The notes beneath the pieces were generated by a model that worked only from the letters and a program-made list of their open reading frames with translations, made no database searches and was not told where the DNA came from. Below, one piece after another: positions 5,339 through 59,360 of a stretch of 64,000 nt of DNA. Source of the DNA: Thermoplasmata archaeon. Lineage in GTDB: Archaea > Thermoplasmatota > Thermoplasmata > RBG-16-68-12 > JAGMCJ01. The DNA is taken from contig JBHIFJ010000001.1 in NCBI GenBank assembly GCA_046761045.1, positions 11,795-75,794 on the forward strand. Direction: 5' to 3'. Each line of letters starts with the position of its first letter. Positions within the stretch are counted from its first letter, which is position 1. The position numbers were made by a program, and so were the translations under genes.

Positions 5339-5368
5339 ACCGGAATTTTTCGTCAGGCTTTTATAGGT

Positions 5369-5376
5369 AAAGTGCA
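5369..5376 (+). promoter_or_regulatory. Putative TATA box (TTTATAGG) upstream of ABC-transporter operon
   Basis: AT-rich TATA-like octamer ~38 nt upstream of GTG start at 5414, followed by strong SD GAGGAGG at 5400-5406. Confidence 0.35.
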
Positions 5377-5413
5377 TTTTACTTTCATAAAGTCTGCTTG
5401 AGGAGGCGGAAAT

Positions 5414-22332: not shown

Positions 22333-24729
22333 CTAGGCTCTTGCCTTGAAGGCCTTCATCGTCTTGTTGAATTCCTTGTCCGTCACTTCTGACATAATCT
22401 TGTGCATTTCCTTCATCTTCGATGCGAATCTCTCGGCCTCCGCAGCTGAAATCCATTCGAGCTGGAGCCTGTTCGGGTCTATTCCCATCTTCTCCAGTTT
22501 CCTCTTCCATCTCTTTACTCTCTTGAGGGTCTGTTGGTTCGCATTGATATAGTGACAATCCTGGAGATGGCATCCCGAGACGAGCACGGCAGCAGCTCCC
22601 CTCTCAAACGCCCTCATGATGAACTTCTCTGCAACGCGGCCTGAGCACATTGTCCTGATGACGCGGGAGGAACTCGGATACTGCATCCTGGACACTCCGG
22701 CCAGATCTGCACCTGCGTAGGAACACCAGTTGCAGGCGAAGACGAGAACCTTATTGTGCGGGTCCCGCTCGAGCGCATGGTCGATTTGCGAAATGATTTG
22801 GTCATCCGTGAAATGTCTCATAGTTATGGCATCGTTGGGGCACTGAGCCCCACATGTTCCGCAACCTGCACAGGCCGCTTCCACAACGAACGCGAGTTTG
22901 GCATCCTTGTCCGCGGTTATCGCACCATAGGGGCACACCTTCTCGCAGGCGCCGCAGCCAGTACATCTCTCCTCATCCACTATGGGGGTGAGAGCCTCCA
23001 CCGTGACCTCTCCGCGTATCATGAGCCTGTTCGCCCTTGCTGCCGCGGCGGAGGCCTGAGTGACGCTCTCCTTTATGTCCTTGGGGGCCTCAGCACTTCC
23101 CGCCAGGAAGACTCCCCCGGTCGGCGTGTCAATGGGCTTGAGCTTCGGATGGGCTTCCAGGAAGAAGCCGTTCGAATCTGTCGATATGTTCAGAAGCCTC
23201 TGAATCTCCTCCTTGTCGTCCTGCGGTTCCAGTCCAATGGAGAGAATCACCATTCCGAAATTGGTGTCATAGATCTCCTGGAGCGTCGTGTTTTCTCCTC
23301 TGACTCTGAGAGTTCCGTCAGGATTCAGCTTGATGTCGAATGGCAGTCCCCTTATGAATCTGACCCCCTCCTCCTTGGCCCTCTTGTATAGGTCTTCGAA
23401 TCCCTTTCCGAAGGCTCTGATATCCATATAGAACACGGTGATATCGATTTCCGGCCAGTGCTCCTTGATCAAAAGAGCATCCTTTATCGTCTCCATACAG
23501 CAAACATTGCTGCAATACGGGTTTCCTCTGTCCTCGGTTCTCGAACCCACGCACTGTACGAAGGCCACGTTTCTTGGTTGCTTCGCATCGCTGGGCCGTA
23601 TGAGATGACCCTCTGTGGGTCCTGATGCGTTTATCAGCCTCTCAAATTCCAACGTCGTAAGCACATCTGGGTACTTTCCATAGCCATATTCCTCGAGGTC
23701 GCGCGGATCAAATGATTTCATCCCTGTCGCGACTATTATCGTCCCCACTTCGAGCTGAACCTCCTTCTCTGGTTCCATGTCAAAGTCAATCGCCTCCCTT
23801 TCGCAGGCTTCGATGCATTTGGCACAAGCCCTGACGTTCGGCTCGTTCAAGCAGAGGTCCATGTCAACGATGTAGCTGGAGGGGACGGACTGCGGGAAGG
23901 GTATGTATACTCCCTTTCTCGTCGTGAGTCCGAGGTCGAACTCGTTCGGCGACGTGACAGGGCAAACATCTGAGCAATCCCCGCAGGCCGTGCAATCGGC
24001 GGTGACGTAGCGGGCTTTCTGCATGACAAGAGCGCTGAAATTGCCGATGTAGCCATCGATGTGCTCTACTGTAGCGTTTGTCAGCACCTCGACATTCGGA
24101 TGTCTGCCGACTTCCGACATCTTTGGGGCGAGTATGCAGATTGAACAATCCATCGTGGGAAAGGTCTTGTCGATCTGTGCCATCCTTCCGCCTATGCTCG
24201 GCTCCTTCTCAACGAGATAGACTTGGTATCCACAGTCACCCAGATCGAGAGAAGCCTGAATTCCGGCCACGCCTCCACCGATGACCAGCGCGCTCTTTCT
24301 TACGGGAACCTTCTTCTCCACCTGCGGCTTCAGCAGTCGAGCCTTGGCGACAGCCATGGCAACAAGGTCCTTCGCCTTCTCCGTCGCTCCTTCCTTGTCG
24401 TGGAGATGAACCCAGCTGCAGTGCTCCCTGATGTTGGCCATCTCGAGAAGGTATCTGTTCAGCCCCGCCTCCTCGCAGGCATTTCTGAACGTCTCCTCAT
24501 GAAGTTTGGGCGAGCAGGAAGCAACGACGACCCTGTTGAGCCCATGCTCCTTTATGTCGTCCTTTATCTTCTGTTGTCCTGGCTCAGAGCAGGTGTACAT
24601 GTTGTGCTCCGCATAGACCACATCATCCAGAGTCTTTGCATGCTCCGCGACTTCCTCGCAGTGAACTGTTGCCCCTATGTTGAGGCCGCAGTGGCACACG
24701 TAAACGCCAATTCTGATCTCCTCTTTCAT
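22333..24729 (-). CDS. hdrA: Heterodisulfide reductase subunit A fused to MvhD-like domain (HdrA-MvhD)
   Basis: 798 aa from ATG 24729 (MKEEIRIGVYVCHCG); N-terminal 4-Cys domain, FAD GxGxxG (ALVIGGGVAGIQ), inserted and C-terminal 2x[4Fe-4S] CxxCxxCxxxCP motifs; last ~140 aa match MvhD (VFACNWCSYAGADLAG..CSGRV..GCHLQDCHY); start 4 nt after hdrBC stop. Confidence 0.85.
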   Translation of the reverse strand: MKEEIRIGVYVCHCGLNIGATVHCEEVAEHAKTLDDVVYAEHNMYTCSEPGQQKIKDDIKEHGLNRVVVASCSPKLHEETFRNACEEAGLNRYLLEMANIREHCSWVHLHDKEGATEKAKDLVAMAVAKARLLKPQVEKKVPVRKSALVIGGGVAGIQASLDLGDCGYQVYLVEKEPSIGGRMAQIDKTFPTMDCSICILAPKMSEVGRHPNVEVLTNATVEHIDGYIGNFSALVMQKARYVTADCTACGDCSDVCPVTSPNEFDLGLTTRKGVYIPFPQSVPSSYIVDMDLCLNEPNVRACAKCIEACEREAIDFDMEPEKEVQLEVGTIIVATGMKSFDPRDLEEYGYGKYPDVLTTLEFERLINASGPTEGHLIRPSDAKQPRNVAFVQCVGSRTEDRGNPYCSNVCCMETIKDALLIKEHWPEIDITVFYMDIRAFGKGFEDLYKRAKEEGVRFIRGLPFDIKLNPDGTLRVRGENTTLQEIYDTNFGMVILSIGLEPQDDKEEIQRLLNISTDSNGFFLEAHPKLKPIDTPTGGVFLAGSAEAPKDIKESVTQASAAAARANRLMIRGEVTVEALTPIVDEERCTGCGACEKVCPYGAITADKDAKLAFVVEAACAGCGTCGAQCPNDAITMRHFTDDQIISQIDHALERDPHNKVLVFACNWCSYAGADLAGVSRMQYPSSSRVIRTMCSGRVAEKFIMRAFERGAAAVLVSGCHLQDCHYINANQQTLKRVKRWKRKLEKMGIDPNRLQLEWISAAEAERFASKMKEMHKIMSEVTDKEFNKTMKAFKARA

Positions 24730-24733: not shown

Positions 24734-25849
24734 TCACGACTCCAACGACTCAGCCAACATGACGAACAGATCCTTGACCTCCGTGTTGACATCGCTCGGC
24801 TCATCCAAAGCGCACCTGAAGTGTATCAAGCATTTCGGGCACGCGGTTATCATCACATCGGCAATCTGAGATGCTTCCTTCAAGCGGCTCACCTGAATTC
24901 TCTTTGAGTCTTGATCGCAGTTCATCCAGCAGGAGGTCCCACAGCAGACTGACTTCTTTCTGTTGTCCTCCATCTCCACCAGTTCCAGGCCAGGAACCGA
25001 AAGCAATAGCTCTCTCGGGGCCTCGTAGATTCCTTGGAACCTTCCCAGTCTGCAGGAATCCTGATATGTGACCTTCTTTCCGTTCTCCTTGAACCTCAGG
25101 TCATCAAGTCTCTTCTCCAGGAAGTTAGACAGGTGGTGCAGCTCGATATCCTCCCTGAGGTCCACATAGTCCTCCTTGAAGGTGTTGTAGCATTCTGGGC
25201 AAGTGAAGACGATTTGCTTCACCTTGGACCGATTGATCATGGCAGTGTTCAGCTCGGCCAGCTCCGCAAACGTGTCTGTCTCTCCAGACCAAAGCATATC
25301 ATGACCACAACACACCTCATTCCTGAGAAGTCGTGGCTTGATGCCGATGCTGTTGAGCAGCGTTATCGCGCTCTTGGTAATCTCGGTGTGACTCCCCACG
25401 TCGCCTAGAATCAGGTCGTAGTAGGGTGCACAGCCTACAAACAGAAGAGTGGTGCCTCGGGTGTCTGTTTCCAATGAATCATCCAGCCATCCCAGTCTCT
25501 TCTGCTTCAGCTGACCGCTTGCCATTAGTCTCGCCATCGAGTGGAGAATCCCAGCGTGGGCACAGTCGCCATGGTCGTCACGCTTGACCAGTATCGCTCT
25601 GATTTCCCTCACAAAGACAGGGTAGTGAACGTCGGACGGACAATACTGGGAGCACGCCTCACATGTGAGACATTCCCACATCTCATTGGGATCGATTCTC
25701 TTCTCGCCGTAGGCGAGAATCCTCTCGACGATTCTTCGCGGGGAGTAGATGTTTCCGTTGTATGTGAGTGGACAGGCGAGCGTGCACTTGCCGCACGAGT
25801 AGCACATCTGGACCCGGTTTTCCTTGATGACCTCACCCAGTTCCATCAC
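24734..25849 (-). CDS. Heterodisulfide reductase HdrC-HdrB fusion (ferredoxin + two CCG domains)
   Basis: 371 aa; N-terminal 2x CxxCxxCxxxCP (CYSCGKCTLACP; CLTCEACSQYCP) = HdrC; C-terminal CCG motifs (NEVCCGHD; KSVCCGTSCW) = HdrB. Confidence 0.8.
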   Translation of the reverse strand: MMELGEVIKENRVQMCYSCGKCTLACPLTYNGNIYSPRRIVERILAYGEKRIDPNEMWECLTCEACSQYCPSDVHYPVFVREIRAILVKRDDHGDCAHAGILHSMARLMASGQLKQKRLGWLDDSLETDTRGTTLLFVGCAPYYDLILGDVGSHTEITKSAITLLNSIGIKPRLLRNEVCCGHDMLWSGETDTFAELAELNTAMINRSKVKQIVFTCPECYNTFKEDYVDLREDIELHHLSNFLEKRLDDLRFKENGKKVTYQDSCRLGRFQGIYEAPRELLLSVPGLELVEMEDNRKKSVCCGTSCWMNCDQDSKRIQVSRLKEASQIADVMITACPKCLIHFRCALDEPSDVNTEVKDLFVMLAESLES

Positions 25850-26265
25850 TTGCCGCCTCCCAATGGGTTGGGACCCTTGTTCTTGATCTCCTTGACGAAC
25901 TCCTTGACAACCTCAGCGAATCTTGTCCCCTCTGAGGCCGAAATCCATTCGAGGCGGATGCGGTCAGCACCCAGCCCGATGACATCGGCAACCTTTCTGG
26001 CATTCTCCATCCTGATCTCTGCTTTTTCGTTTCCGGAGTTGTAATGGCAGTCACCTGGGTGGCAGCCAGCGACCAGAACGCCATCGATGCCCTTCTCGAA
26101 AGCGCGGAATATATGACCCGGGTCGACACGACCTGAGCACATCACTCTGACTATCTTGACATTGGCTGGGTATTGGAGTCTGGAGGTCCCTGCAAGGTCA
26201 GCCCCAGAATAGGCACACCAGTTGCAGCAGAACGCAAGGATTCTTGGCTCGAACGGTTTCTTCAT
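25846..26265 (-). CDS. mvhD: MvhD-like [2Fe-2S] electron-transfer protein
   Basis: 139 aa; FCCNWCAYSGADLAG, CSGRVDP, GCHPGDCHY - canonical MvhD signature. Confidence 0.85.
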   Translation of the reverse strand: MKKPFEPRILAFCCNWCAYSGADLAGTSRLQYPANVKIVRVMCSGRVDPGHIFRAFEKGIDGVLVAGCHPGDCHYNSGNEKAEIRMENARKVADVIGLGADRIRLEWISASEGTRFAEVVKEFVKEIKNKGPNPLGGGK

Positions 26266-29253
26266 CTAAGCCCATCCCTCCAGACTCTCGATGATTCTGT
26301 CAAGCTGATCGCTCGTGCATCCGTAGACATCCAGCGCGCCAGTTGGGCACGCAACAACACAAGCACCACATCCCTTGCAGAGCACAGTATTCACCATTGC
26401 TGTTTTGATGTCTTCCGACTCCACAACCTCGATTGCGCCGAAATCGCAGACCTCAACACACCTACTGCACCATCTGCATCGTGATTCATTGACGTGAGCG
26501 ACCAAGGGCTCGACTTCTATTCTGTCCTTGGAGAGTAGCCCGAGAGCTTTCGTCGCAGCTCCTCTGCCTTGGGCAATGCTCTCGTCTGAAGGCTTCGCGG
26601 AATGGGCGAAGCCACATAGGAAGATGCCGTCGGTCGCGAATTCAACCGGCCTGAGCTTTCGGTGTGCTTCCAGGAAGAAGCCGTCCCCGCTCAGGGGGAC
26701 CTTCAGTATCTCGGACAGCTTCTCGTTGTCCGGATTCGGTCTTATGCCCGCGCTCAGAATCAGGTATTCCGGTTCGAGGAGAACATCCTCCATCAGGAAT
26801 GTGTCCTTCACGACGACATGCAGCTTCCCCTTCTCCTCCCTCACCTCGGGGGGATTCTCATCGTTGTATCTCAGGAATATGACGCCCCTCTTGGACGCCT
26901 CTCGATAGAACCTCTCCCTGAATCCATACGTCCGTATGTCCTTGTAGAGGACATAGACGGGCGTATCATGATATTTCCTCTTCACCCACAAGGCGTTCTT
27001 GATGGATGTGGAGCAGCATATGCGACTGCAGTTGTGATACTCGGGCACGCGAGAGCCCACGCACTGTATTATCACTATGCTCCTGGGATTGAAGTCCTCG
27101 TGGAGCATCCTCTCCTCCAGCTCGAGCTGGGTCATGACGTGGTCGCTCCTTCCGTACAGATACTCGGTGGGTCTGTACTCGACCGCGCCCGTGGCGACTA
27201 TGACGACCCCGTGATCGATATCGCTCCCATCCGCAAGCGTGGTGTGAAAGTTCCCAACGAATCCGTCGAGGGACTCGACCTCCGTTCCCATGTGCAATGT
27301 GATTCTGTCGTTGCTCCTCACACTCTCTATCGTGTCCGTGAGGAGCTTCTGAGGATCCATTCCCCTCAGCGTATGCGTTATCCTTCTCAGGTTCCCGCCA
27401 AGCTCGTTCGTCTTCTCGACGAGATGCGTCTTTATTCCGTGCTCCGCGAGGGACAGCGCGGCTGTCATCCCCGACAGTCCGCCTCCTATCACGAGGGCGG
27501 TCCTGTTGACGGGGACGGATACCTTCTGGAGGGGTTCCAGAAGCCTTGCCTTCGCGATCGCAGCCGCAACGAGTCCCTTGGCCTTCTCCGTCGCCTTCTC
27601 AGGCTCCTTGGAATGTACCCACGAACAGTGCTCGCGTATGTTCGCCATCTCGAAGAGATAGGGATTCAGTCCCGCCTCCCTTATCGTCTCCTGGAAGAGT
27701 TTCTCATAGGACCTTGGTGAGCAGGATGCAACGACGACCCGATTGAGGTCATGCTCCCTTATGGACTCCTTGATCCTCTCCTGGGTCGTGACGGAGCATG
27801 TGTACAGATTGTCCTCAGCGTGAACGACGTTGGGCAGCGTCCCAACGTACTCGACGACGGAGGGAACGTCCACGACACCGCCTATGTTGATTCCGCAGTG
27901 GCATACGAAGACACCGATGCGGGGGGCTTCCACTTCAACCGAGGTCCCCTCTGGCGAATCCTTGCGAGCTTTGACCTCTTCGAAAACGGGGGTGACCAGA
28001 GAGGCTGCCGATGACTGGCACACCGAGTCCGGGATGTCCTTCGGTTCAGCTATGGTTCCCGCAACGTATACGCCGGGTCTCGTGGTCTGAAAGTTCTCAA
28101 AGGAGATCGTCCTGAAGAAACCATAATCGTTGAGTTCCGCGCCAAGGACCTTGCTGAGCCCTTCCGCGTCCTTCGGCGGTCTCATCCCAACCGACAACAC
28201 GACAAGGTCGAACTCCTTGTCCTCAATCTTGTCATTCTCAGGATACCTGGTGAGGACTGCACCGCTAGGGGCGGGCTCGAGTGCCGAGACCCTATTCCCT
28301 CTGTAGATTCTTATGCCGTGCTCCTCTTCGGCCCTCATCCTGAAGTCTTCGAACTCCTTGCCAAAAGCCCTCAGGTCTATGGAGAAGATGTGGATGTCGA
28401 CTGACGGGTTATGCTCCTTCGCCACAATCGCCTCCTTCAGCGCGTACATGCAGCACACGGAGGAGCAGTACTCTCCTCCGTATACGACGGATCTGCTTCC
28501 CACGCACTGAATGAACGCGATGTTCTTGGGCTCCCTTCCGTCGGAGGGCCTCACCACCCTTCCCTGTGTCGGACCGGATGCGCTGAGGAGCCTCTCGAAC
28601 TCGAGGCTCGTTATGACATTCGGAAGGACGCCGTATCCGTACTCGTGTATCACGGAGGGATCGAAGACATCCGCTCCGGATGCGATTATGACGCTTGCCA
28701 CCTCTATCCTCGTCTCCTCCTCTCTCTGATCGAACTCTATGGCCTGCGCCTCGCAGAACTTCTCGCAGGCCCTGCATTTTCCCGTCTTGAAGTAGATGCA
28801 GTTGTCCCTGTCTATGACATATGTGGAGGGAACGGATTGCGGATATGCCCTATATATCGCCTTTCTGATGGAGCTGCCGGCATCGAACTCATTGAGCACC
28901 TTGGCGGGACACTTCTCGGAGCAGATTCCGCAGGCGACGCACTTCTCCTCGTTCACATACCTGGGATTCCTCCTTATCACGGCGGTGAAGTTCCCCCTCT
29001 CTCCCTCGAGCGCCATGAGCTCGGCGTTTGTGAGAAGCTCTATATTGGGATGTCTTCCCGCCTCCACGAGCTTGGGAGAGAGTATGCACATTGAACAATC
29101 ATTCGTGGGAAAGGTCTTGTCAAGCTGAGCCATCCGACCGCCGATGAATGGGGAGCTTTCGAGAATCGTCACCTGTGCGCCAGCGTTGGCTATATCAATG
29201 GCGCTCTGGATGCCAGCGATTCCTCCTCCTATCACAAGGATGCCCTTGTCCAA
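26266..29253 (-). CDS. Tandem-duplicated HdrA-like flavoprotein (995 aa)
   Basis: First module (aa 1-~430): FAD motif VIGGGIAGIQ, inserted ferredoxin, lacks N-terminal Cys cluster; second module (~aa 440-995): VFVCHCGINIGG Cys-cluster domain, second FAD motif LVIGGGLSGM, C-terminal 2x[4Fe-4S] (CRWCSRCVEVC; CKGCGACVVACP). Begins 1 nt after korG stop. Confidence 0.8.
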   Translation of the reverse strand: MDKGILVIGGGIAGIQSAIDIANAGAQVTILESSPFIGGRMAQLDKTFPTNDCSMCILSPKLVEAGRHPNIELLTNAELMALEGERGNFTAVIRRNPRYVNEEKCVACGICSEKCPAKVLNEFDAGSSIRKAIYRAYPQSVPSTYVIDRDNCIYFKTGKCRACEKFCEAQAIEFDQREEETRIEVASVIIASGADVFDPSVIHEYGYGVLPNVITSLEFERLLSASGPTQGRVVRPSDGREPKNIAFIQCVGSRSVVYGGEYCSSVCCMYALKEAIVAKEHNPSVDIHIFSIDLRAFGKEFEDFRMRAEEEHGIRIYRGNRVSALEPAPSGAVLTRYPENDKIEDKEFDLVVLSVGMRPPKDAEGLSKVLGAELNDYGFFRTISFENFQTTRPGVYVAGTIAEPKDIPDSVCQSSAASLVTPVFEEVKARKDSPEGTSVEVEAPRIGVFVCHCGINIGGVVDVPSVVEYVGTLPNVVHAEDNLYTCSVTTQERIKESIREHDLNRVVVASCSPRSYEKLFQETIREAGLNPYLFEMANIREHCSWVHSKEPEKATEKAKGLVAAAIAKARLLEPLQKVSVPVNRTALVIGGGLSGMTAALSLAEHGIKTHLVEKTNELGGNLRRITHTLRGMDPQKLLTDTIESVRSNDRITLHMGTEVESLDGFVGNFHTTLADGSDIDHGVVIVATGAVEYRPTEYLYGRSDHVMTQLELEERMLHEDFNPRSIVIIQCVGSRVPEYHNCSRICCSTSIKNALWVKRKYHDTPVYVLYKDIRTYGFRERFYREASKRGVIFLRYNDENPPEVREEKGKLHVVVKDTFLMEDVLLEPEYLILSAGIRPNPDNEKLSEILKVPLSGDGFFLEAHRKLRPVEFATDGIFLCGFAHSAKPSDESIAQGRGAATKALGLLSKDRIEVEPLVAHVNESRCRWCSRCVEVCDFGAIEVVESEDIKTAMVNTVLCKGCGACVVACPTGALDVYGCTSDQLDRIIESLEGWA

Positions 29254-29802
29254 CTAACTCGCCACCGAGTTCTTGCCGTACTCGTAGCCCTTCTCAAAGG
29301 CTTCGAGATTGAGCTCTTCCGTTCCCTTTGGAACCGAGTCAAGAATCGACTTCCTCATCGCATCATAGCCGACAACGTCCGATACTGCTGTGAGAAATCC
29401 AAGCATAACGATGTTGGCAACGATCTTCTTTCCGAGGTCTTCCGCCATTCTGGTGGCGGGAGCCTTGTATATCTTGTTCTTTCCACTGAACGATGAGACA
29501 TCGACGAGATCTTCATCGACAATCAGTATCGCATCATCGGCGGCCCTTACATGATATTGATTGTAGGCGTCCTGGGACATTAGAACCAGCACGTCAGGGG
29601 CAGTTCCCATCGGATAGTTGATGTCCTCGTCGCTAATGATGACATCAGCATGGCAGGCTCCGCCCCTCGCCTCTGGACCGTAGGATTGAGTCTGGACCGC
29701 TTCCTTCCTTTCATAGAGCGCGACAGCCTTTCCCAGGATGAAGCCCGCCAAGACAATGCCTTGCCCCCCGAAACCGCCCAGACGGACCTCCTTCCTGCTC
29801 AC
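29254..29802 (-). CDS. 2-oxoacid:ferredoxin oxidoreductase, gamma subunit
   Basis: 183 aa from GTG 29802 (GTGA overlap with korB stop); VRLGGFGGQGIVLAG gamma-subunit N-terminus; the ORF track's upstream extension is an overlap artefact. Confidence 0.8.
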   Translation of the reverse strand: MSRKEVRLGGFGGQGIVLAGFILGKAVALYERKEAVQTQSYGPEARGGACHADVIISDEDINYPMGTAPDVLVLMSQDAYNQYHVRAADDAILIVDEDLVDVSSFSGKNKIYKAPATRMAEDLGKKIVANIVMLGFLTAVSDVVGYDAMRKSILDSVPKGTEELNLEAFEKGYEYGKNSVAS

Positions 29803-30671
29803 TTTATCACACCCTTCGCTTTGAGCATCTCCCTTTCGAGCTCGCAGTAGGTGGGTCGCTCTATGTCTACAAAATCGCCCACGACAATGGGCTCCCCTCC
29901 TCTCATATGAAGCACAAGCTCGTCCCAAGAGGCATCGTTCTTTATCACGGACTTCTCCCTGTAGTAGCGCAGTTCCTGAAGCCCTTCTCCGAGCTTGTTT
30001 GGTCTTCCGAAGCCTGTGGGGCATGGGGAAATAATCTCGATGAACGTGAACCCCTTCTTCTTGAGCGCTTTCTCCATGGACTTCTCAAGCTGGCGGCAGT
30101 GCAAAGTTGTCCATCGTGAGACATAGACCGCTCCCACAGCAGCCGCCAGGTACGGAAGATTGAATGGATGCTCAAAGTTCCCGTAGCGGGTCGTCGTGGT
30201 CTTCGCTTCCACTGGTGTCGTTGGACCCTGCTGACCGCCGGTCATGCCATAGTTGAAGTTGTTTACACAGATTACATTGATGTCGATGTTGCGCCTGGCG
30301 GCGTGAAGGAAGTGGTTTCCCCCTATTGCGAAAAGGTCGCCATCGCCGCTGAATACAGTGATGCAGAGTTCGGGGTTGGCAATCTTGAGCCCAGTTGCGA
30401 ATGGGATGGGCCTACCGTGAGTGGTGTGATATGAGTCGATCTTGACATATCCCGCGATCCTTCCTGTACACCCGATTCCAGATAGGAGCACCTGCCCCTC
30501 AATGGGAATGTCGACCCTTTCCAACGCCTGCGCATAGCAGGTCATCGCAGATCCAAGGCCACAGCCCGAGCACCATATGTGAGGAAGCCGGTCCCGTCTC
30601 AAAATGTGGTCGAGCGGATGCTCCTCTCCAACTTCGATCCTAGTACCATCAGGCGCTTCTCGAACGCTCAA
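29799..30671 (-). CDS. 2-oxoacid:ferredoxin oxidoreductase, beta subunit (TPP-binding)
   Basis: 290 aa from TTG 30671 (SD GGAGGTG 6 nt upstream; overlaps korA stop); CSGCG..GIGC Fe-S Cys, GDGD TPP-binding motif. Confidence 0.85.
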   Translation of the reverse strand: MSVREAPDGTRIEVGEEHPLDHILRRDRLPHIWCSGCGLGSAMTCYAQALERVDIPIEGQVLLSGIGCTGRIAGYVKIDSYHTTHGRPIPFATGLKIANPELCITVFSGDGDLFAIGGNHFLHAARRNIDINVICVNNFNYGMTGGQQGPTTPVEAKTTTTRYGNFEHPFNLPYLAAAVGAVYVSRWTTLHCRQLEKSMEKALKKKGFTFIEIISPCPTGFGRPNKLGEGLQELRYYREKSVIKNDASWDELVLHMRGGEPIVVGDFVDIERPTYCELEREMLKAKGVIK

Positions 30672-31804
30672 GTTGCCACCTCCCTTATCTTGTGAAGAAT
30701 GGCCTCCGGGGACATCATGCCTCCACCTGGGTGAGTGACGCTGAGGACCCTCCCACTTGCGAACCTCTCGACCTCCCTGGAAATCTGTCCCATGTTTATT
30801 TCTGGGACAAGGAACGCCTTGGCGCTCTCGGCCAGCTCTCTTATCCTCGCCTCGGGGAAGGGCCAAGCCGTGATTAGTCGAAGGAGACCCGCCCTCATTC
30901 CCTCCTCTCTCGCGAAATTCACCGCCCTGCCAGCAGATCTTGAAGCAGCTCCATAGGAAACGACAATGATGTCAGCATCCTCCGTCTGGCTCTCCTCGAA
31001 TTCCCATATGTCCGGCGCGTGTTCTCTTATCTTTCTAATAAGGCGTGTCACCATCTCGTGCTGGACCTCTTCGTTTATTGCAGGATAGCCACGGATGTCA
31101 TGGGTCAAACCGGTGACGTGTATCCCATATCCCTCTCCAGCGATCGCCATTGGCGGAATGAGGTCCTCATCGGGTTCGTAGGGCAAGAAGTCCTTCTTGT
31201 GTGTTGGCCTCTTTCGGGACGCGATTTCTATCTCCTCGGGCTCGGGAATGACGACCCTCTCCACCATGTGTCCGATTATCTCGTCCGCCATTACGAGGAC
31301 TGGCTGGCGGAACTTCTCGGATGTGTTGAAGGCTCTAATCGTAAGGTCAAACATCTCCTGGCACGAGTTAGGAACGTAGGCAATGGCTTCGTAGTCACCG
31401 TGGGAACCCCACCGTGCCTGCATCATGTCTGCTTGTCCTACCAGAGTGGGCAATCCCGTTGACGGTCCTCCTCTCTGGACGTTGACTATGACACACGGCG
31501 TCTCCGTCACTATCCCGAGTCCGATGTTCTCCTGCATGAGGCTGAATCCGGGTCCAGAGGTTGCCGTCATTGCCTTAACCCCAGCGCATGAGGCGCCGAG
31601 GACGGCGGCGAGGCTTCCGATTTCATCTTCCATCTGAATATAGTGACCGCCAACCTGTGGCAGCCGCAAGGCCATCCTCTCGGCAGTCTCTGTCGCAGGC
31701 GTAATGGGATAGCCCGCAAAGAACCTGCAACCGGCTGCTAGAGCTCCCTCCGCGGCAGCGATATCGCCCATCATGAAATGCCTGCCAGTCAGCACCGGCT
31801 TCAT
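30668..31804 (-). CDS. 2-oxoacid:ferredoxin oxidoreductase, alpha subunit
   Basis: 378 aa from ATG 31804 ([39 protein letters not shown]); ATGA overlap with korD stop. Confidence 0.85.
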
Positions 31805-32073
31805 TCCTCCTCCTCCGTGTATATCGCGAACTCGGGGCATACTAGCATGCAGAAATTGCAGTTTATGCAGCCATCCTCCTTCCCGTCCTTTATCATTGGT
31901 GGGTGATATCCCTTCCTGTTGATCTCCCTGGACTGCTCCAGAATGCCTTTCGGACAAAACTCGATGCAGAACCCGCACCCCTTGCACCTGTCTGGGATTA
32001 AGTATACTCGCCCTTTCGGCGTCTTGACCTTGTTCCTGTCAAGCGGGGTGCGCCAGTATTTCACGAACACCAT
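31801..32073 (-). CDS. 2-oxoacid:ferredoxin oxidoreductase, delta subunit (2x[4Fe-4S] ferredoxin)
   Basis: 90 aa; [12 protein letters not shown] and [12 protein letters not shown] motifs. Confidence 0.8.
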
Positions 32074-34461: not shown

Positions 34462-37197
34462 ATGGGAAGACGGTTTGCTAGTCTGTGGGCAGTAATTGTG
34501 GTTGCGTTGTTCGTCGGCTCAGCCTTTGTTGGTTTCAGCTATATTTCTGAGACCTCCGGGTCCAAGGAAACAACTACCCCTGCTATCGGATGTCGGGGCG
34601 GATCAAGCCCCAGGAAGGTGTTGTTGGAGAAGTTCACAGCCGATTGGTGTCCTCCGTGTGTTTCGCAAGGACACACGATCAAGAGGCTGGAACATGAGTT
34701 TGGCCATGAGAACCTTGTGGTTCTGGTCTACCACACTTCTTCTTCCGATCAGTTCTATGTCACGGATATCTCCACTCGCCCTGGATTCTACGCTGATTCA
34801 GGCTACTATTTCCCGACTGTAATCATCGACGGAGGTGGTCCCTATACTGGGGACAGCAACACGCCCTCGCCGAATGGAGCTGAGCTGTGGGACATTGGCG
34901 GTTCCGTTTCAAACAGATACAACAACTACAACAACGACAGGGGAATGATCGAACAGGAACTCCCGCCCTCGGAAATGAGCAACATCACGATAGAATTGTC
35001 AGGCAACATCACGGGAGACACAGGATACGTGCACGCCCGAATCACGGCCACAGATCCAATCACCGAAACCAACCTAAAGGTCAGATTCATGGTCTATCAG
35101 AACCACAACTATCACAGAGACAGCAATACAGCAGAGAACGCAGCGGGGCACAAGAGGGTGTACGACAGAATCGTGCGCAAGGTTCTGAATGAGGAGAGCC
35201 TTCCTCCAAGCTTCAACATGGGCGATTCAGTGGAGTATCACAAGACCTTCCAGGTGGGTCCATGGAACGGGACATTGCCCGATAGTCACACTCAACCCGA
35301 CAAGAGAAATCTCGGGGTTGCAGTCTTTGTCCAGACGGACAACAGAAATATGTGGCATCACAGTGCCTATGGTAAGGATTTCTACAACGCCCCTGTTCTG
35401 CAGGCCGAGGCATACGACTTTGTCGAGAGCACCGTTCTCCTGGTCAATGGGGACAACACTGATACTCTTGACAATGGCTTTGAGAGATTCGAGGATGTGA
35501 TGGCGAAGGTCGGGGTCCCATACGACGTCTGGGATACCCTCGAACCCGGTGATTCCAATGTTCAGAATCTGAGGACGATGCCAGGACTGGCGGATATCGG
35601 GAAGTACGGGGCACTCGTTTGGTTCACTGGGGAGGCGACATCCACACTGTCGATGACCGACAGGACAAACCTGCAAGCGTATCTGGGAGCCACTGGAAGC
35701 TTGTTCGTCACCGGTGAGGATATCGGCCAGGACGCCCAGAGCAACGGCTGGGCCGGATGGCTACTCACCAATCTCCATGCTAGCTTTGTAACTGACACTG
35801 TCATCTATACTACTGCCGAGGGAGTCCCCGCAGACCCGATTACAAATGGGCTCTCAGGTCTGAATGTGGTCGACTCTTCGCCGAGTCGCATTTCTCCGGG
35901 TTTGGGTGCATATGAGATCCTCCGATACACTGGGACCACGAATGTGGCGGGCATCAGGGCCACTCATGACGCCGATTCGCGGGTGGTCTACATTTCATTC
36001 GACTATTTCGAGGGAACCAACACCTATCCCTCCGATCCGAATGCGGAAGCAGTAATGGACAATACCGTCTACTGGCTTGATGGTGTGGCCCCTCCCACAG
36101 TCCAAATCAGCAAGCCTCAGGCCGGCGACCTAGTTCTTCGTGAGACATGGTACACCATCCAGTGGTCCGCACACGACGTCGATATCCCAGAGGACGGTGT
36201 CGACATCGAGTACAGCACGGACTCCGGCATGACCTGGAATGCCGTTACGTCAGCTGATGTGAACGATGGCGCCCACTACTGGTTTGTCCCTGCCGTCTCC
36301 TCCAGCAACTGCAAGGTTCGAGTCTGCGTGCGGGATTCCAATGGCCAGCAATCCTGTGACGAAACAGGACTCTTCAGGATTGGGACACCGAATCTCCCGC
36401 CCGAACCCCCCATGCTTACAGCCGCCTATCTCAGCGGCGGCTCTCAGGATGTGACTCTCGCTTGGGACAAGTCCGCCGATGATGGTGGGGGATTCAACGA
36501 TGTCGTAGAGTATGACATCTATGCGGCTCCCACTCTTGGGGGCCTCCAGACATACATCGGCAGTGAACCGGCGACGGGCGCTGCAAGCTACACCTGGACA
36601 TGCGTCGGATGCGGTGACGGCGACCCGAACCAGTACTTCTTCTATGTGTGGGCTGACGACGGCGAGGAGGTGACGGCCTCTTCTGTGGTTGCAGGGAAGT
36701 TCGTAAGACCTCTTGCGACTGGATGGAATCTGGTTTCGGTGCCACTAATACAGACAGATACATCTGCAAGCGTTGTCCTTCAGACGGTGAACTCAGGGAG
36801 GGCTGTCTATTACGATGCCGCTGATCAGGCCGACCATTGGAAGGACTACGACACCAACCAGTATGTCAATGACCTGGAGGGCATCGATAGAACCATGGGA
36901 TTCTGGCTGTACAGTCCCGCTCCCGACGATTTCGTTGTTGCGGGGATTGTCCCCGATTCCACTGACGTTTACCTGCAGATAGGATGGAACCTCGTCGGGT
37001 TCCCGTCCTTCAGCACAACCTACACGATCCAGGACATGATGTCAATCACTTCAGTCAATGAGGCGGAGGCATTTGATGCAGTGTCCACACCATATCTTCT
37101 CAAGGCAGTTTCGCCAGCGGGCGCCGACCAGATGGTCCCAGGGGATGGCTACTGGGTCTACGCGACCTCCGTGAGTACGTGGACAGTTCTACAGTAG
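34462..37197 (+). CDS. Large secreted multidomain protein with N-terminal thioredoxin-like (WCPPC) domain
   Basis: 911 aa; signal/anchor MGRRFASLWAVIVVALFVGSAFVG; TlpA/ResA-like WCPPC redox motif at aa ~62; many NxS/T sequons; internal beta-rich Ig/FN3-like segments (duplicated GWNLVxxP motif); strong SD AGGAGGAGG. Confidence 0.65.
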   Translation: MGRRFASLWAVIVVALFVGSAFVGFSYISETSGSKETTTPAIGCRGGSSPRKVLLEKFTADWCPPCVSQGHTIKRLEHEFGHENLVVLVYHTSSSDQFYVTDISTRPGFYADSGYYFPTVIIDGGGPYTGDSNTPSPNGAELWDIGGSVSNRYNNYNNDRGMIEQELPPSEMSNITIELSGNITGDTGYVHARITATDPITETNLKVRFMVYQNHNYHRDSNTAENAAGHKRVYDRIVRKVLNEESLPPSFNMGDSVEYHKTFQVGPWNGTLPDSHTQPDKRNLGVAVFVQTDNRNMWHHSAYGKDFYNAPVLQAEAYDFVESTVLLVNGDNTDTLDNGFERFEDVMAKVGVPYDVWDTLEPGDSNVQNLRTMPGLADIGKYGALVWFTGEATSTLSMTDRTNLQAYLGATGSLFVTGEDIGQDAQSNGWAGWLLTNLHASFVTDTVIYTTAEGVPADPITNGLSGLNVVDSSPSRISPGLGAYEILRYTGTTNVAGIRATHDADSRVVYISFDYFEGTNTYPSDPNAEAVMDNTVYWLDGVAPPTVQISKPQAGDLVLRETWYTIQWSAHDVDIPEDGVDIEYSTDSGMTWNAVTSADVNDGAHYWFVPAVSSSNCKVRVCVRDSNGQQSCDETGLFRIGTPNLPPEPPMLTAAYLSGGSQDVTLAWDKSADDGGGFNDVVEYDIYAAPTLGGLQTYIGSEPATGAASYTWTCVGCGDGDPNQYFFYVWADDGEEVTASSVVAGKFVRPLATGWNLVSVPLIQTDTSASVVLQTVNSGRAVYYDAADQADHWKDYDTNQYVNDLEGIDRTMGFWLYSPAPDDFVVAGIVPDSTDVYLQIGWNLVGFPSFSTTYTIQDMMSITSVNEAEAFDAVSTPYLLKAVSPAGADQMVPGDGYWVYATSVSTWTVLQ

Positions 37198-37216: not shown

Positions 37217-38515
37217 TCATTCGGGAGGCGCTCTTCGGCTCCGTAGCGCAACGACTGCTATCACAAGAACCAACACAATGATCATGACGAGAATGATCCA
37301 AGCCATTGGATCCACTGGCGGATTCCACACGCTCGCGTTGAGAGGGTCGTAGTCCTCCTTGTCGTTGACACCGTCACCGTCCGTGTCCGGATTTCTTGGA
37401 TCCGTGCCCTTCTCATCCTCCTCCTCGTCAGTCAGGCCGTCATCATCATCATCGGTATCCGCGTTGTCACCTATCCCGTCATTATCGGTGTCATTCCACT
37501 CTGTGCTATTAAGCGGGAAGACATCAACGGAGTCGAGGTAGCTGTCGCCGTCCGTGTCAGGGTTCTTCGGGTCCGTCTGCAGCCCGGTTTCTTCGTCATC
37601 CAATAGACCGTCATCATCATCATCGGTATCCGCGTTGTCACCCGTTCCATCGTTGTCGGTGTCGATCCACTCGGTCTGGTTGAGGGGAAGGGCATCAGCC
37701 GAGTCATTGTAGCCATCACCATCCGTGTCAGGATTGATAGGACTCGTGCCTATTGTGGCCTCTTGTTCATCAGTGAGCCCGTCATTGTCATCGTCCTCAT
37801 CCAGGTAGTTGGGGGTCCCGTCATTGTCTGTGTCTATGTCCGCCACCTCGAGGGGGACAAGAGTGCTTCTTGTCATCGTCCTATTCACGACAGTTATGTT
37901 CAGAGTATACGGTCCGTGCTGGTCAGGTGCGGCTATGGCAAATGAAAAGCTGCCATCGTTCTTCGTGAAGGAGTCCCAATTCTCTCCCGTTTCAATGACC
38001 TCAAGGGTGACTGCCGACCCTTCTGCAGGCGCACTGACGTTGGCATCATAGATTGCTGTTCCGTTGACCCAGACAGGGTCGTTGACCACTGGGAAAGCGG
38101 GGTCGGGAGCCGCCGAGACATTTATCCAGTGCACCACAGGGAAGTACAGCTTGTCAGTGCTGTTGATGTTTGACTGTTCGTCCCACGCCTCAATCCTGAC
38201 ATCGCCCCAAGTGCTCCCTGGAATGACACTGTACTGTGCGCCGTAGGTGGAGTCTCCATCTGGGTCCAGCATGCTCACACTGTCGCAAAGCCCTCCAGAC
38301 CAACAGATGTATGCGTCAACATTCGTGATGTTGTCCTGATCAGTGACGGTCGCGTTAAACGTCATGGTCTCGCCCTCCATAGGATACTCCGGTGTCCATG
38401 TGACGTTCGAAATCTCCGGAGCGTAGCTGTCTGCCCGTGCGGCTGGGTATGACGAAGCTATCGCGACCGACGTCAAGACCATGAAACCCAGGATTATTGT
38501 CAGAATGCCTTTCAT
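37217..38515 (-). CDS. Secreted thrombospondin-type-3-like Ca-binding repeat protein with C-terminal TM anchor
   Basis: 432 aa; signal peptide MKGILTIILGFMVLTSVAIA; >=4 repeats of DTDNDGxxDxxDxDDDDDGLxDxEE (DxDxDG Ca-binding); C-terminal TM helix followed by RSRRAPPE. Confidence 0.7.
   Translation of the reverse strand: MKGILTIILGFMVLTSVAIASSYPAARADSYAPEISNVTWTPEYPMEGETMTFNATVTDQDNITNVDAYICWSGGLCDSVSMLDPDGDSTYGAQYSVIPGSTWGDVRIEAWDEQSNINSTDKLYFPVVHWINVSAAPDPAFPVVNDPVWVNGTAIYDANVSAPAEGSAVTLEVIETGENWDSFTKNDGSFSFAIAAPDQHGPYTLNITVVNRTMTRSTLVPLEVADIDTDNDGTPNYLDEDDDNDGLTDEQEATIGTSPINPDTDGDGYNDSADALPLNQTEWIDTDNDGTGDNADTDDDDDGLLDDEETGLQTDPKNPDTDGDSYLDSVDVFPLNSTEWNDTDNDGIGDNADTDDDDDGLTDEEEDEKGTDPRNPDTDGDGVNDKEDYDPLNASVWNPPVDPMAWIILVMIIVLVLVIAVVALRSRRAPPE
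37437..37778. repeat. ~171-bp tandem DNA repeat inside TSP3-repeat gene
   Basis: Near-identical units starting CCGTCATCATCATCATCGGTATCCGCGTTGTCACC at 37437 and 37608, with a degenerate third copy after ~37780. Confidence 0.7.
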
Positions 38516-38661: not shown

Positions 38662-40806
38662 TTACTCTGTCGTTGGCGGCTCCTCTTCCTCGAGAGGCTC
38701 CTCAGGCGGTGCTCCTCCTCGCCTCGCGGCTACCACTGCTGCGATGATAATCACGATGATGATTATCACAGCGATGGCGATGTATATCCACATCATGTCC
38801 AGTGGTGGAGCTTCTCCGCCAACATCGACCTCTATGTCGCCCACGTCGGTAGTCTGATCTTTCTGTATCGTGCCACTGACGTCTCCGACATCCCCGTTCT
38901 CATAGAAGACATCAAAGGTCAGCGTGCCTGGAGCGTGGTCGAACGTGAACTCTCCATTCGCGTTCGTGGTTGCCCAGACAGTTCCATCGCTGTCGCGTAT
39001 CTCGGCGTTTTCGAGTGGCTCTCCGTCCTTGTCCTTGATAACTCCGGACATTGACCCTGGAGTCAGGTCATCAACAACCTGAAGCGCAGTCGTGTTTGAG
39101 TAGTCGAGCAGGTCTGTTTGCAGATCGTGATTGTGGACTCCTCCGCTTCCGTCCGCATCTGTGAGTTCGAAGGCGAACAGGGCCTTGTCGTACTTCGCTT
39201 GTGCTGCGCTGACCTGTGCATCTGTGAATCCTAGATCAGTAGCGTCTGCCAGAGCTTGCTCAGCTGATGTCAGTGCACTCTCCGGGTATGGAACCAGTTC
39301 CTCAAAGTCTGCAGTCCAGTTGGTTACTATTTCGTCCGCCTCTTGGTCGGTGTAGGTTGTGCCTGGTGTCGTGTCGGTGTGGCAAGCGACCGTACATGAG
39401 TTGGGCATGTTGTACTGAATCCCGTGTGCTGGAGTTATCGCCCGGAACGTGTGACTCGAGATGTCATAGCTCAACGCCGATTTGGCAACCTTGGGTGTAT
39501 GGCAATCGACGCAACTCACTGCACCACTCATCCACGGACTTCCTGGAACCTCGGTCAGATTCACATCACCCAGAAGCATCTCCTTCTGGGAATGATCTGG
39601 TGTGTCCCCGGGTCCAGCGCCCTCCATGGTGTGGCAGTCTATGCAGAGCTGATCGGTTGGCAGTCTCAGCTGATGCTCGTTCGGATCTTCGTGGGTGTCG
39701 TGGCAGGCCACGCACTCGATGCCCCACTTCGCCGTTGTGAGATTCGGCTTGCTGCCCTCAGGAGCAAGTCTGTAGTCCGTCGACATGCAGTGCAAGCAGT
39801 CGTCCTGAGCGTATGGCTTGGATACGAGATTCACAAGGGAATCCTTGTGCAGTGACTGATTCCAGTCGTTGAACTGCTGATGGTGGCTCTTCGACGTGTT
39901 CCCATCACCCCAGACGCTTGGGTTGTGGTTGTAGTAGTCATCGATGCTGTCACCTGGCTTGAATCTGCCGTTATTCCATGGATATCCAGGGGCCTTTCCA
40001 GCCACTCCCAGATCGTCCTTCGCAGACCCTCGGATATGGCATTGACCGCAGACCTGTGAATCAGCAGACTTCCATATCTTGGTTGCATCTCCGTTATGGT
40101 CGCTTCCAGGTCCGTGACATGCTTCGCATCCCACGTTCAGTTCGCTCCAACTAGCTGTCCATTCCTGTGTCGTGGTATTGTACGTGATGTTGACCCCGGT
40201 GGAGTGGCAGCCCGCACACTTTCTATCCCAGGATGCGTCCTTGGCTATTGGCTTGGGATTTCCCGATGTGTCGTACCAGTCCGACAGATGGTAGGGTACC
40301 CACTCGCTTGTTGCTGTGTTCCACTGGATGGGCAGAATGTATCTGCTGTTCCCTATCTGAGCCAGGTATCTCTGCTTCCAGGCTGAGCCCAACGTCTTCC
40401 AGACCGTATAGTTGTTCGTTCCCATTGCCACGGTGTAGTTTCCGCTTGTCGAGTTGTACCACAGTTCTATGGTGACGTCCGGAATCCCAGCACCGGTGTC
40501 ATTGAAGACTGGATTCGGCCCAAGGAAATCGCCGATTACCGTCGCTGGGCTTGGGTCTTGAAGCATCTTGCTGTGCAAGGTGTTTGCCCAGTTGTCGTTC
40601 TTGTTGCCCCATGCAGCATTGTTGTGGCACGTAGCGCATGCGTCTGAACCGATATAGGTGGCGGTATCCATGTAGGAGTTGTCCTCCTCGGCGCGCGTTC
40701 CAGCGTCCCCGTCAGCCACCGATGTCGTACCAATGTAGACCAAAGCCAGGATGGCCGCCAAGGCTGCAAAAATGCCTATGGCGAGCACTATCTCTTTTCT
40801 TTTCAT
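38662..40806 (-). CDS. Membrane-anchored multiheme c-type cytochrome (7 CxxCH + 1 CxxxCH)
   Basis: 714 aa; N-terminal signal/anchor; heme motifs CATCH, CAGCH, CEACH, CGQCH, CVACH, CIDCH, CVDCH plus CTVACH (CX3CH) and a CLHCM; numerous N-glycosylation sequons; C-terminal TM helix followed by ARRGGAPPEE acidic Pro-rich tail. Confidence 0.8.
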   Translation of the reverse strand: MKRKEIVLAIGIFAALAAILALVYIGTTSVADGDAGTRAEEDNSYMDTATYIGSDACATCHNNAAWGNKNDNWANTLHSKMLQDPSPATVIGDFLGPNPVFNDTGAGIPDVTIELWYNSTSGNYTVAMGTNNYTVWKTLGSAWKQRYLAQIGNSRYILPIQWNTATSEWVPYHLSDWYDTSGNPKPIAKDASWDRKCAGCHSTGVNITYNTTTQEWTASWSELNVGCEACHGPGSDHNGDATKIWKSADSQVCGQCHIRGSAKDDLGVAGKAPGYPWNNGRFKPGDSIDDYYNHNPSVWGDGNTSKSHHQQFNDWNQSLHKDSLVNLVSKPYAQDDCLHCMSTDYRLAPEGSKPNLTTAKWGIECVACHDTHEDPNEHQLRLPTDQLCIDCHTMEGAGPGDTPDHSQKEMLLGDVNLTEVPGSPWMSGAVSCVDCHTPKVAKSALSYDISSHTFRAITPAHGIQYNMPNSCTVACHTDTTPGTTYTDQEADEIVTNWTADFEELVPYPESALTSAEQALADATDLGFTDAQVSAAQAKYDKALFAFELTDADGSGGVHNHDLQTDLLDYSNTTALQVVDDLTPGSMSGVIKDKDGEPLENAEIRDSDGTVWATTNANGEFTFDHAPGTLTFDVFYENGDVGDVSGTIQKDQTTDVGDIEVDVGGEAPPLDMMWIYIAIAVIIIIVIIIAAVVAARRGGAPPEEPLEEEEPPTTE

Positions 40807-55647: not shown

Positions 55648-55650
55648 ACC

Positions 55651-59310: not shown

Positions 59311-59360
59311 TCTGCCAAGCTTTTTTAGGAGCGTATCCTTTTCAGTCGAGGGGTGAGAGG

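Follow-up and report, generated by a model that had tools for sequence, protein, structure and literature searches.

The window analysed here, a 64,000-nucleotide (nt) stretch from an uncultured Thermoplasmatota archaeon (positions 11,795 to 75,794 of contig JBHIFJ010000001.1, assembly GCA_046761045.1, renumbered from 1), encodes a 995-amino-acid (aa) HdrA-like protein on its minus strand at 26266..29253. This gene very probably specifies an authentic HdrA dimer fused into one polypeptide, a member of the BamE / type II HdrA family whose two modules are anciently diverged and complementary. A sequence-only reading of the window had proposed two HdrA-like flavin adenine dinucleotide (FAD) modules in one chain, and the open reading frame (ORF), phmmer searches, and alignments described below bear this out.

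Module architecture and cluster ligands

The ORF comprises 995 codons from a TTG start and contains no in-frame stops; the frame is also continuous across the junction of the modules, where the sequence-only reading had asked for a check. Pfam recognizes two separate pyridine-nucleotide-disulphide/FAD stretches (Pyr_redox_2 / FAD_oxidored) and a C-terminal di-cluster ferredoxin, and two GxGxxG motifs mark two thioredoxin-reductase-like (TrxR) FAD-binding domains in one chain of ~1000 aa. In phmmer searches against all PDB chains, residues 5-372, 442-615, and 855-989 correspond to residues 146-510, 2-175, and 513-647, respectively, of HdrA from M. thermolithotrophicus (5odc_A). Each half was aligned (MAFFT) to this chain and to the window's own four-domain HdrA, an alignment that the sequence-only reading had suggested and from which the cluster ligands and the equivalents of C194/C197 could be assigned. 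Ligand conservation was scored in 113 full-length homologues, to which the conservation values in this section refer. The gene and its parts are as follows:

26266..29253, minus strand: fused double HdrA gene (BamE-type / type II HdrA), 995 aa; from the ORF, its translation, and colinearity with BamE
28969..29253, minus strand: module 1 FAD (TrxR-like) domain, first part, aa 1-95; GGGIAG at 9-14 and Cys53/Cys56, from the alignment
28720..28968, minus strand: module 1 inserted 2x[4Fe-4S] ferredoxin domain, aa 96-178; aligns to HdrA 246-303
27994..28719, minus strand: module 1 FAD domain, second part, aa 179-420; from alignment and conservation
27931..27993, minus strand: inter-module linker, aa 421-441; frame continuous, poorly conserved, low-confidence prediction
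27535..27930, minus strand: module 2 HdrA N-terminal cluster domain, aa 442-573; aligns to HdrA 2-133 with 224.7 bits
26527..27534, minus strand: module 2 second FAD (TrxR-like) domain, aa 574-909; GGGLSG, its own cluster, and Lys752, from the alignment
26266..26526, minus strand: module 2 C-terminal 2x[4Fe-4S] ferredoxin domain, aa 910-995 plus stop codon; aligns to HdrA 568-647, Pfam Fer4_7 and Fer4_21

Module 1 contains the cysteine pair Cys53/Cys56, equivalent to C194/C197 of M. thermolithotrophicus HdrA, and both cysteines are invariant, as are G9-G11 and G14 and all eight ligands of the inserted ferredoxin (Cys105, 108, 111, and 115; Cys152, 160, 163, and 167). The second part of its FAD domain, in which the 'EAHPKLRP' motif is degenerate, holds Glu220 (HdrA E356), Lys273 (HdrA K409), and the cluster cysteines Cys250, 263, 267, and 268 (HdrA C386, 399, 403, and 404), each conserved in 100% of the homologues. 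Together these make up the residue set of an HdrA-type bifurcating site, in which a lysine held by a glutamate lies at flavin N5 beside a cluster; the functional roles of the residues are taken from published work (PMC12054007; bioRxiv 10.64898/2026.04.10.717634). The sequence-only reading correctly described a truncated first module that lacks the N-terminal cluster domain and retains the FAD motif and the inserted ferredoxin, but left unstated that the C-terminal 2x[4Fe-4S] domain is missing as well.

At about aa 380 and 398 (nt ~28060-28115), where ~95% of the family has Cys, this protein and its closest relative (P0002) have Phe and Ala. The Cys at position 380 is also present in Geobacter BamE, and neither position is a canonical cluster ligand.

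Module 2 begins with the N-terminal cluster domain, whose five cysteines (Cys451/453 of the CHCG motif, Cys486, Cys511, and Cys543) are invariant. Its FAD domain has invariant glycines (G590, G592, and G595) and invariant cluster ligands (Cys731, 742, 746, and 747); Lys752 is kept in 88% of the homologues, while position 749 is Thr, shared with 20 of the 113, and Gln in 62. All eight ligands of the C-terminal ferredoxin are also invariant (Cys926, 929, 932, and 936; Cys959, 962, 965, and 969). The second module had been called a complete HdrA, which is correct for the CHCG domain and the C-terminal 2x[4Fe-4S] domain but not for the remainder: the alignment has a ~75-residue deletion at the site of the inserted ferredoxin and no Cys at the C194/C197 positions.

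The accessory domains are therefore divided between the halves, with the Cys pair and inserted ferredoxin in one only and the N-terminal cluster domain and C-terminal ferredoxin in the other only, and this pattern is invariant in the family. In all 113 homologues the 31 predicted cluster cysteines are retained, together with C53/C56, K273, and E220. The halves are thus complementary, with predicted sites for seven [4Fe-4S] clusters and two FADs per chain. Because the two FAD cores are only 26-29% identical to each other, the gene is better explained as an old fusion of diverged paralogues than as a recent tandem duplication; the earlier description of the protein as tandem-duplicated does not hold, and Lyu et al. 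2025 likewise infer a fusion of two distinct HdrA classes. The linker joining the halves is the least conserved stretch of the protein (conservation of 0.19 in its 20-residue block).

An AlphaFold2 model of the 995 residues, built from a 113-sequence alignment, has a predicted template modeling score (pTM) of 0.80 and a mean predicted local distance difference test score (pLDDT) of 81.6. Confidence is low mainly in residues 45-53, which form the Cys-pair loop, in the linker at 424-436 (pLDDT <50), and in short loops; the Cys-pair loop is mobile in HdrA and BamE. For a chain of two modules, a pTM of 0.80 implies that the predicted halves have a defined mutual arrangement, which is consistent with a pseudo-dimer. 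The suggestion of a covalent, asymmetric mimic of the HdrA dimer is supported, and the chain is plausibly its own heterodimer partner. A sequence search of the PDB and a Foldseek fold search of its entries to April 2026, in copies that do not contain 29QY, 29RC, and 29RN, found no fused HdrA and only single chains of ~650 aa; the Foldseek matches of the model (5odh, 5odc, 8rvu, and 7bkb) are single HdrA chains.

Distribution of the family and relation to known HdrAs

A 100% identical 995-aa protein with the same neighbours is encoded on an independently assembled Logan contig (L085, from SRR29324587). Of the 120 top-ranking database clusters, 113 have lengths of 985-1020 aa and cover 97-100% of the fused HdrA at 53-80% identity. 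A scan of one genome per GTDB species gave at least 600 matching stretches; the best 80 loci, which were assessed, are colinear with residues ~1-990 at 45-53% identity, and two closer partial contigs reach 75-83%. The closest genome match among those listed is a fragment of a Thermoplasmatota metagenome-assembled genome (MAG) with 83% identity; as TFIIB is encoded in the window too, the host can be assigned to the archaea of this phylum. Archaeal hosts among the matches listed are Thermoplasmata, Methanomassiliicoccales, Bathyarchaeia, Archaeoglobi, Methanoperedens, Promethearchaeia, and Nitrososphaeria; bacterial hosts include many Desulfobacterales along with Syntrophobacterales, Thermodesulfobacteriota, Dehalococcoidia, Desulforudis, Geobacter, and Syntrophorhabdaceae. 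Isolate genomes, those of Desulfosarcina variabilis and Desulforhopalus singaporensis, also carry a colinear fused HdrA. Judging by these matches, the colinear fused HdrA is common to hundreds of genomes of anaerobic archaea and bacteria, and the protein of the window is an ordinary member of a described family.

This distribution bears on whether a frameshift or mis-assembly merged two adjacent hdrA genes into one ORF, the artefact that the sequence-only reading had named as what would refute its proposal. Tandem split versions do occur in genomes of anaerobic methanotrophic archaea (ANME), as HdrA5/6 and HdrA12/13 (PMC9012536), and the linker at the junction is poorly conserved. However, the ORF is continuous and recurs unchanged on the independent Logan contig, there are 113 homologues of the same length, the 80 colinear loci include isolate genomes, and BamE is a purified and structurally solved fused protein. 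The sole frameshift seen runs in the reverse direction, splitting an ortholog. We therefore consider this explanation refuted, with a negligible chance of being correct. The split ortholog lies in a syntenic relative of 77% identity (L002, 9498-12478), in which two overlapping genes of 179 and 825 aa are called in place of the fused HdrA, probably owing to a frameshift or sequencing error in that contig.

Several relatives depart from the simple fused form. Some Thermoplasmatota-like genomes contain two or three paralogous ~1000-aa fused HdrA genes in a row (L003, 10001-21747; L001, 10001-18748), and these arrays are accompanied by a 334-aa MvhD fused to HTH_20, which recalls the enlarged BamF, and by a 544-aa MvhD-HdrD fusion. 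Close relatives with 70% identity (P0003, on L004 at 1986-5687, P0005, P0019, and P0021) are triple HdrA-HdrA-MvhD fusions of 1233 aa, and one relative of 1697 aa additionally has GltD/NfnB-like domains (PF14691). Some bins with a fused HdrA bear unlikely taxonomic labels (L044, a contig labelled Bacteroides salyersiae; L012; and L104-type names, Chloroflexi and 'Patescibacteria') and may be mis-binned contigs.

The concept, architecture, and structure of fused HdrAs are all already published, in papers of 2022-2025 and a 2026 preprint, and with hundreds of genomes carrying the gene the architecture is not the unusual one it had been taken for (PMC9012536; PMC11237513; PMC12054007; bioRxiv 10.64898/2026.04.10.717634). 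Chadwick et al. 2022 described tandem and fused HdrAs in ANME and the HdrA of Moorella MetFV-Hdr, and proposed complementarity of the fused halves (PMC9012536). Double-HdrA fusions were then reported in Asgard and TACK archaea, with up to six copies per genome and 17 of 54 further fused to MvhD (mSystems 2024, PMC11237513); a 2024 bioRxiv paper on HdrA evolution makes no mention of fusions. Lyu, Yu, Lu 2025 defined a 'type II HdrA' class of 176 sequences, inferred that it arose by the joining of two different HdrA classes and not by duplication with later fusion, placed its A6-like part in the N-half, and noted that some of its gene clusters add another HdrA and an HdrD (PMC12054007).

The protein of the window shares with type II HdrA (A3/A4 and derivatives; ANME HdrA3/HdrA4) the two thioredoxin-reductase domains per chain and the complementarity of the N-terminal domain and Cys197, and its N-half resembles class A6 in having neither the N-terminal domain nor the C-terminal ferredoxin. 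The fused HdrA loci of Methanoperedens (ANME-2d; L033, 7845-11114, and L076, 7995-11057) are colinear with it at 47% identity, with the Cys-pair module first. Type II clusters, which have been interpreted as F420H2-dependent, typically contain HdrBC and FdhB together with an inactive molybdopterin protein, whereas the window has none of these. The text of Chadwick et al. on HdrA3/4 places the module with the N-terminal domain first, opposite to the order in the window; either different classes are meant or the wording is inverted. A reversed module order was considered as a novelty and rejected, as BamE and the homologues of Methanoperedens, Bathyarchaeia, Asgard, and Desulfobacterales share the order of the window, in agreement with Lyu et al.

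Canonical HdrA of MvhAGD-HdrABC (M. thermolithotrophicus 5ODC, M. marburgensis 8RVU, M. hungatei 7BKB) is the best match in both sequence and fold. It offers a counterpart for every domain, and its cluster ligands, K409/E356, and C194/C197 are conserved in the fused HdrA. However, canonical HdrA is a ~650-aa protein of four domains forming a symmetric homodimer with two copies of each domain, whereas the fused HdrA has one copy of each accessory domain spread over two covalently linked FAD cores. The HdrA of Moorella thermoacetica MetFV-HdrABC-MvhD can be set apart by its description, as its partners MetFV and HdrBC are absent from the operon of the window.

The fused HdrA is compared most directly with BamE. 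Cryo-electron microscopy (cryo-EM) of the Geobacter metallireducens benzoyl-CoA reductase (entries 29QY, 29RC, and 29RN) resolved BamE as a fused HdrA dimer with FAD in both TrxR domains (bioRxiv 10.64898/2026.04.10.717634). According to the same preprint, the TrxR1 FAD is bifurcating, with Lys280 at N5 and the Cys59-Cys62 pair, while the TrxR2 FAD, contacted by Gln768, has no bifurcating features, does not lie at a branch point, and is considered structural; electrons enter at clusters E1/E2 of the C-terminal ferredoxin domain, E4 leads to BamD, whose acceptor is an electron-transferring flavoprotein (ETF), and the low-potential output is reached via E3/E5/E6. A bifurcating site that is asymmetric, as suggested from the sequence alone, is in line with this structure, where bifurcating features are restricted to the N-terminal TrxR1 FAD.

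We aligned the fused HdrA to BamE from a Geobacter sp. locus (L073), where Pfam identifies in series a 654-aa AOR-type protein, a 176-aa ferredoxin, a 383-aa CCG protein, and a 1018-aa fused HdrA, followed by FlpD/MvhD-like, [2Fe-2S] thioredoxin-like, and Nuo51-like genes; this is the bamBCDEFGHI arrangement of class II benzoyl-CoA reductase. Residues 5-990 are colinear with residues 9-1011 of this BamE at 45% identity and 66% positives. As its numbering is 2 residues behind that of G. metallireducens BamE, equivalences were mapped via the alignment: Cys59/Cys62 correspond to Cys53/Cys56, Lys280 to Lys273, and Gln768, which contacts the non-bifurcating FAD, to Thr749. BamE TrxR2 likewise keeps a Lys five residues past its CC motif (CCSQSIK), so conservation of Lys752 alone is not diagnostic of a second bifurcating site. 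The two proteins are of the same length class (995 vs 1018 aa) and agree in domain order (TrxR1 with Cys pair and inserted ferredoxin, N-terminal-type cluster domain, TrxR2, C-terminal ferredoxin), in the count of seven clusters and two FADs, and in adjoining MvhD-like (BamF) and HdrBC-fusion (BamD) homologues.

The window differs from the Bam system in its archaeal host and in lacking AOR-type BamB, BamC, and the NuoEF-like BamGHI; Geobacter BamB, BamC, BamG, and BamH gave no match to the whole window (tblastn, E <= 1e-5). Its MvhD is a short form of 139 aa without the extra domains or selenocysteine of BamF, and its operon instead holds a 2-oxoacid:ferredoxin oxidoreductase (OFOR) and an HdrA2-type protein. 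From this gene content, the fused HdrA is not part of a benzoyl-CoA reductase.

The operon and its surroundings

The fused HdrA is the fifth gene of an eight-gene minus-strand operon (OFOR delta, alpha, beta, and gamma, fused HdrA, MvhD, HdrD-like, and HdrA2-type), whose neighbouring genes adjoin directly, share 4 nt, or have gaps of a few nt between them. Its other members are:

29254..32073, minus strand: 2-oxoacid:ferredoxin oxidoreductase, four subunits, directly upstream of the fused HdrA; Pfam POR_N, PFOR_II, TPP_enzyme_C, POR
31801-32073, minus strand: OFOR delta; OGOR_delta-like
30668-31804, minus strand: OFOR alpha; NCBIfam NF006412, 566 > 411
29799-30671, minus strand: OFOR beta; Pfam
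29254-29802, minus strand: OFOR gamma; NCBIfam NF006323, 245 > 235
25846..26265, minus strand: MvhD, [2Fe-2S] adaptor, 139 aa, BamF-like; Pfam FlpD 3.2e-55
24734..25849, minus strand: HdrD-like protein, HdrC-type 2x[4Fe-4S] and two CCG domains, 371 aa, BamD-like; Pfam CCG x2, Fer4_8
22333..24729, minus strand: HdrA2-type HdrA-MvhD fusion, 798 aa from the ATG at 24729 (mechanical ORF to 24804); NCBIfam NF040770 HdrA2, 1243.9 bits > 1100

The OFOR is best described as a putative generic 2-oxoacid:ferredoxin oxidoreductase. The MvhD is 49% identical to the N-terminal part of BamF, and the HdrD-like protein is 33% identical to Geobacter BamD over its full length (E 5e-59); the latter falls under every NCBIfam equivalog cut-off, with TfrB as its best match, below cut-off. 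A separate HdrA-MvhD fusion in the same operon had been noticed from the sequence and is confirmed by its HdrA2 score, a Pfam FlpD domain at its C-terminus, and the presence of all four HdrA domains in the alignment.

OFOR gamma ends in a TAG that immediately precedes the TTG start of the fused HdrA, whose own TAG stop in turn abuts the ATG of the MvhD gene. OFOR gamma and the fused HdrA share one reading frame and are parted only by TAG and then TTG (29251-29256, minus strand), an abutment called identically on L085 and L086. Readthrough or selenocysteine insertion joining the two proteins is unsupported, as the stop is TAG and gene callers and relatives give separate genes.

The order OFOR-fused HdrA-MvhD-HdrD-HdrA2 is repeated on L002 (77% identity), L086 (79%), and L085 (100%). 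Of the 84 loci compared, 75 have MvhD next to the fused HdrA, 30 have an HdrD-like gene, and 3 have OFOR. A family-wide linkage to OFOR was accordingly rejected, being limited to these three close relatives and found nearby in L025 and L019. The conserved core is a BamDEF-like cassette, and the pairing with OFOR and HdrA2 is lineage-specific.

Hydrogenase, FdhB/FrhB, ETF, AOR, NuoEF-like, and mcr genes were sought in the 64-kb window and none were found. Elsewhere in the window, a 714-aa protein with an N-terminal hydrophobic segment and seven CXXCH motifs (38662-40806, minus strand; Pfam Paired_CXXCH_1 and cytochrome c552/c554-like) is a multihaem cytochrome c; its gene is close to one with a PAPS-reductase domain (41096-41773), and a similar cytochrome gene occurs on the syntenic L002. 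Genes for methylmalonyl-CoA mutase (55651-57345), MeaB GTPase (54313-55248), and acyl-CoA dehydrogenase (59361-60506) in the region 54313-60506 suggest a heterotroph using acyl-CoA or propionate. Acyl-CoA dehydrogenase normally requires an ETF. Three long ORFs have no Pfam match at E <= 1e-8 (1751-5338, plus strand, 1195 aa; 34462-37197, plus strand, 911 aa; 37217-38515, minus strand, 432 aa), and the 911-aa ORF has a syntenic counterpart of 909 aa in L002, also without Pfam.

Proposed electron flow, alternative readings, and meaning for the family

By homology to BamE, the short flexible linker would hold the two modules in one pseudo-heterodimer. Module 1 brings its FAD domain with Cys53/Cys56, a [4Fe-4S] cluster, the Lys273/Glu220 pair, and the inserted ferredoxin with two clusters; module 2 brings the N-terminal cluster domain, another FAD domain that likewise has a cluster, and the C-terminal ferredoxin, again with two. 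The pseudo-heterodimer would have just one set of domains for electron input and output, in contrast to the (HdrA)2 of methanogens with its two-fold symmetry. The module 1 FAD would be the electron-bifurcating or confurcating flavin. Its high-potential branch would pass via the cluster of module 1 to the HdrD-like (BamD-like) subunit, and its low-potential branch via the cluster of the N-terminal domain, close to Cys53/56, and the inserted ferredoxin domain. The FAD of module 2 would be mainly structural. The low-potential side is probably coupled to the presumably co-transcribed OFOR, via ferredoxin or directly, and the HdrA2-type protein may be a second flavoprotein partner. These physiological donors and acceptors we infer from homology and gene linkage; the literature yielded no characterized enzyme from this archaeal clade.

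Several points weigh against this scheme. The packing of the halves as a pseudo-dimer and the proximity of Cys56 to the cluster are predictions, and naming module 1 as the sole bifurcating site carries over a finding on a bacterial homologue of 45% identity that is described in a preprint. Lys752 is retained in module 2, as is a Glu at the E356 position, and Thr stands where BamE has Gln768, which leaves some probability for a second active flavin. OFOR adjoins the fused HdrA in only three of 86 loci (L002, L085, and L086) and lies nearby in two. Finally, the 64-kb window contains no mid-potential donor module (hydrogenase, FdhB, or NuoEF-like) and no ETF.

Both FADs could be catalytic, giving two bifurcation sites per chain, as Lyu et al. 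2025 propose for type II HdrA. The invariant FAD glycines of module 2, the wide retention of Lys752, and the Glu at the E356 position are in keeping with this, and both residues are present in 75% of type II sequences (PMC12054007). However, BamE TrxR2 has the equivalent Lys, yet its second FAD is reported to be non-bifurcating; module 2 has neither the Cys pair nor the inserted ferredoxin, and there is a single N-terminal-domain cluster and a single HdrD-like partner. Among the 113 relatives, 13 have Ala, Gly, or Asn instead of Lys752, whereas all keep Lys273, and we regard a second site as distinctly improbable. A third possibility dispenses with bifurcation altogether: the protein might be a linear ferredoxin:(di)sulfide or ferredoxin:ETF oxidoreductase disposing of low-potential electrons derived from OFOR, which is the only substrate-level enzyme of the operon, and the lack of a mid-potential donor module in the window would fit. 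Against it stand the strictly conserved components of bifurcation (Lys273/Glu220, the Cys pair, MvhD, and three separate cluster branches), and the missing partner genes may lie elsewhere in the genome; we judge linear transfer to be fairly unlikely.

It is very unlikely that the fused HdrA belongs to a bona fide methanogenic heterodisulfide (CoM-S-S-CoB) reductase in a relative of Methanomassiliicoccales. Its best NCBIfam matches are indeed HdrA2 and HdrA models, some homologues come from Methanomassiliicoccales and Methanoperedens MAGs, and the operon includes an HdrA2-type gene. However, the canonical models applied (NF041778, NF041891, and NF040770) each match it in three separate stretches, and the scores fall below their cut-offs (993.9 < 1100 for HdrA2, 756.4 < 1400, and 728.5 < 1300). 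HdrB and HdrC models match only weakly, far below cut-off, a fused HdrD/BamD-like protein being present instead; no mcr, mvhAG, frh, or other methanogenesis gene occurs in the 64-kb window; and non-methanogens, sulfate reducers and Geobacter among them, have abundant members of the family. The window gives no evidence that CoM-S-S-CoB is reduced by the fused HdrA.

A more elaborate version of the BamE-like scheme, which we consider rather improbable, would make the fused HdrA the core of a dedicated OFOR-Hdr supercomplex, with OFOR wired directly to the inserted ferredoxin domain and HdrA2 sharing the single HdrD-like subunit. OFOR would then take the place occupied by BamBC in benzoyl-CoA reductase or by formylmethanofuran dehydrogenase in methanogen Hdr supercomplexes. 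The evidence for it is the eight-gene operon of abutting or overlapping genes, conserved on three independent contigs; the absence of OFOR linkage from most of the family (84 loci) weighs against it. If this hypothesis is correct, two HdrA-type flavin modules would be coupled for reductive carboxylation (2-oxoacid synthesis) or for confurcation of 2-oxoacid-derived electrons.

For the field there is little new in the fused HdrA itself, as single-chain asymmetric HdrA dimers are already known from comparative genomics and cryo-EM. The only local peculiarity is the conserved OFOR-fused HdrA-MvhD-HdrD-like-HdrA2 operon of this Thermoplasmatota lineage, whose linkage of the fused HdrA with OFOR and an HdrA2-type protein may be a new pairing of input and output for bifurcation of the HdrA type. 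In annotation, it would be wrong to take 'HdrA family' proteins of ~1000 aa for methanogenic heterodisulfide reductase or for mis-assemblies. More broadly, the BamDEF-type module of fused HdrA, MvhD, and HdrD-like protein would represent a portable bifurcation cassette that extends beyond aromatic degradation and methane metabolism.

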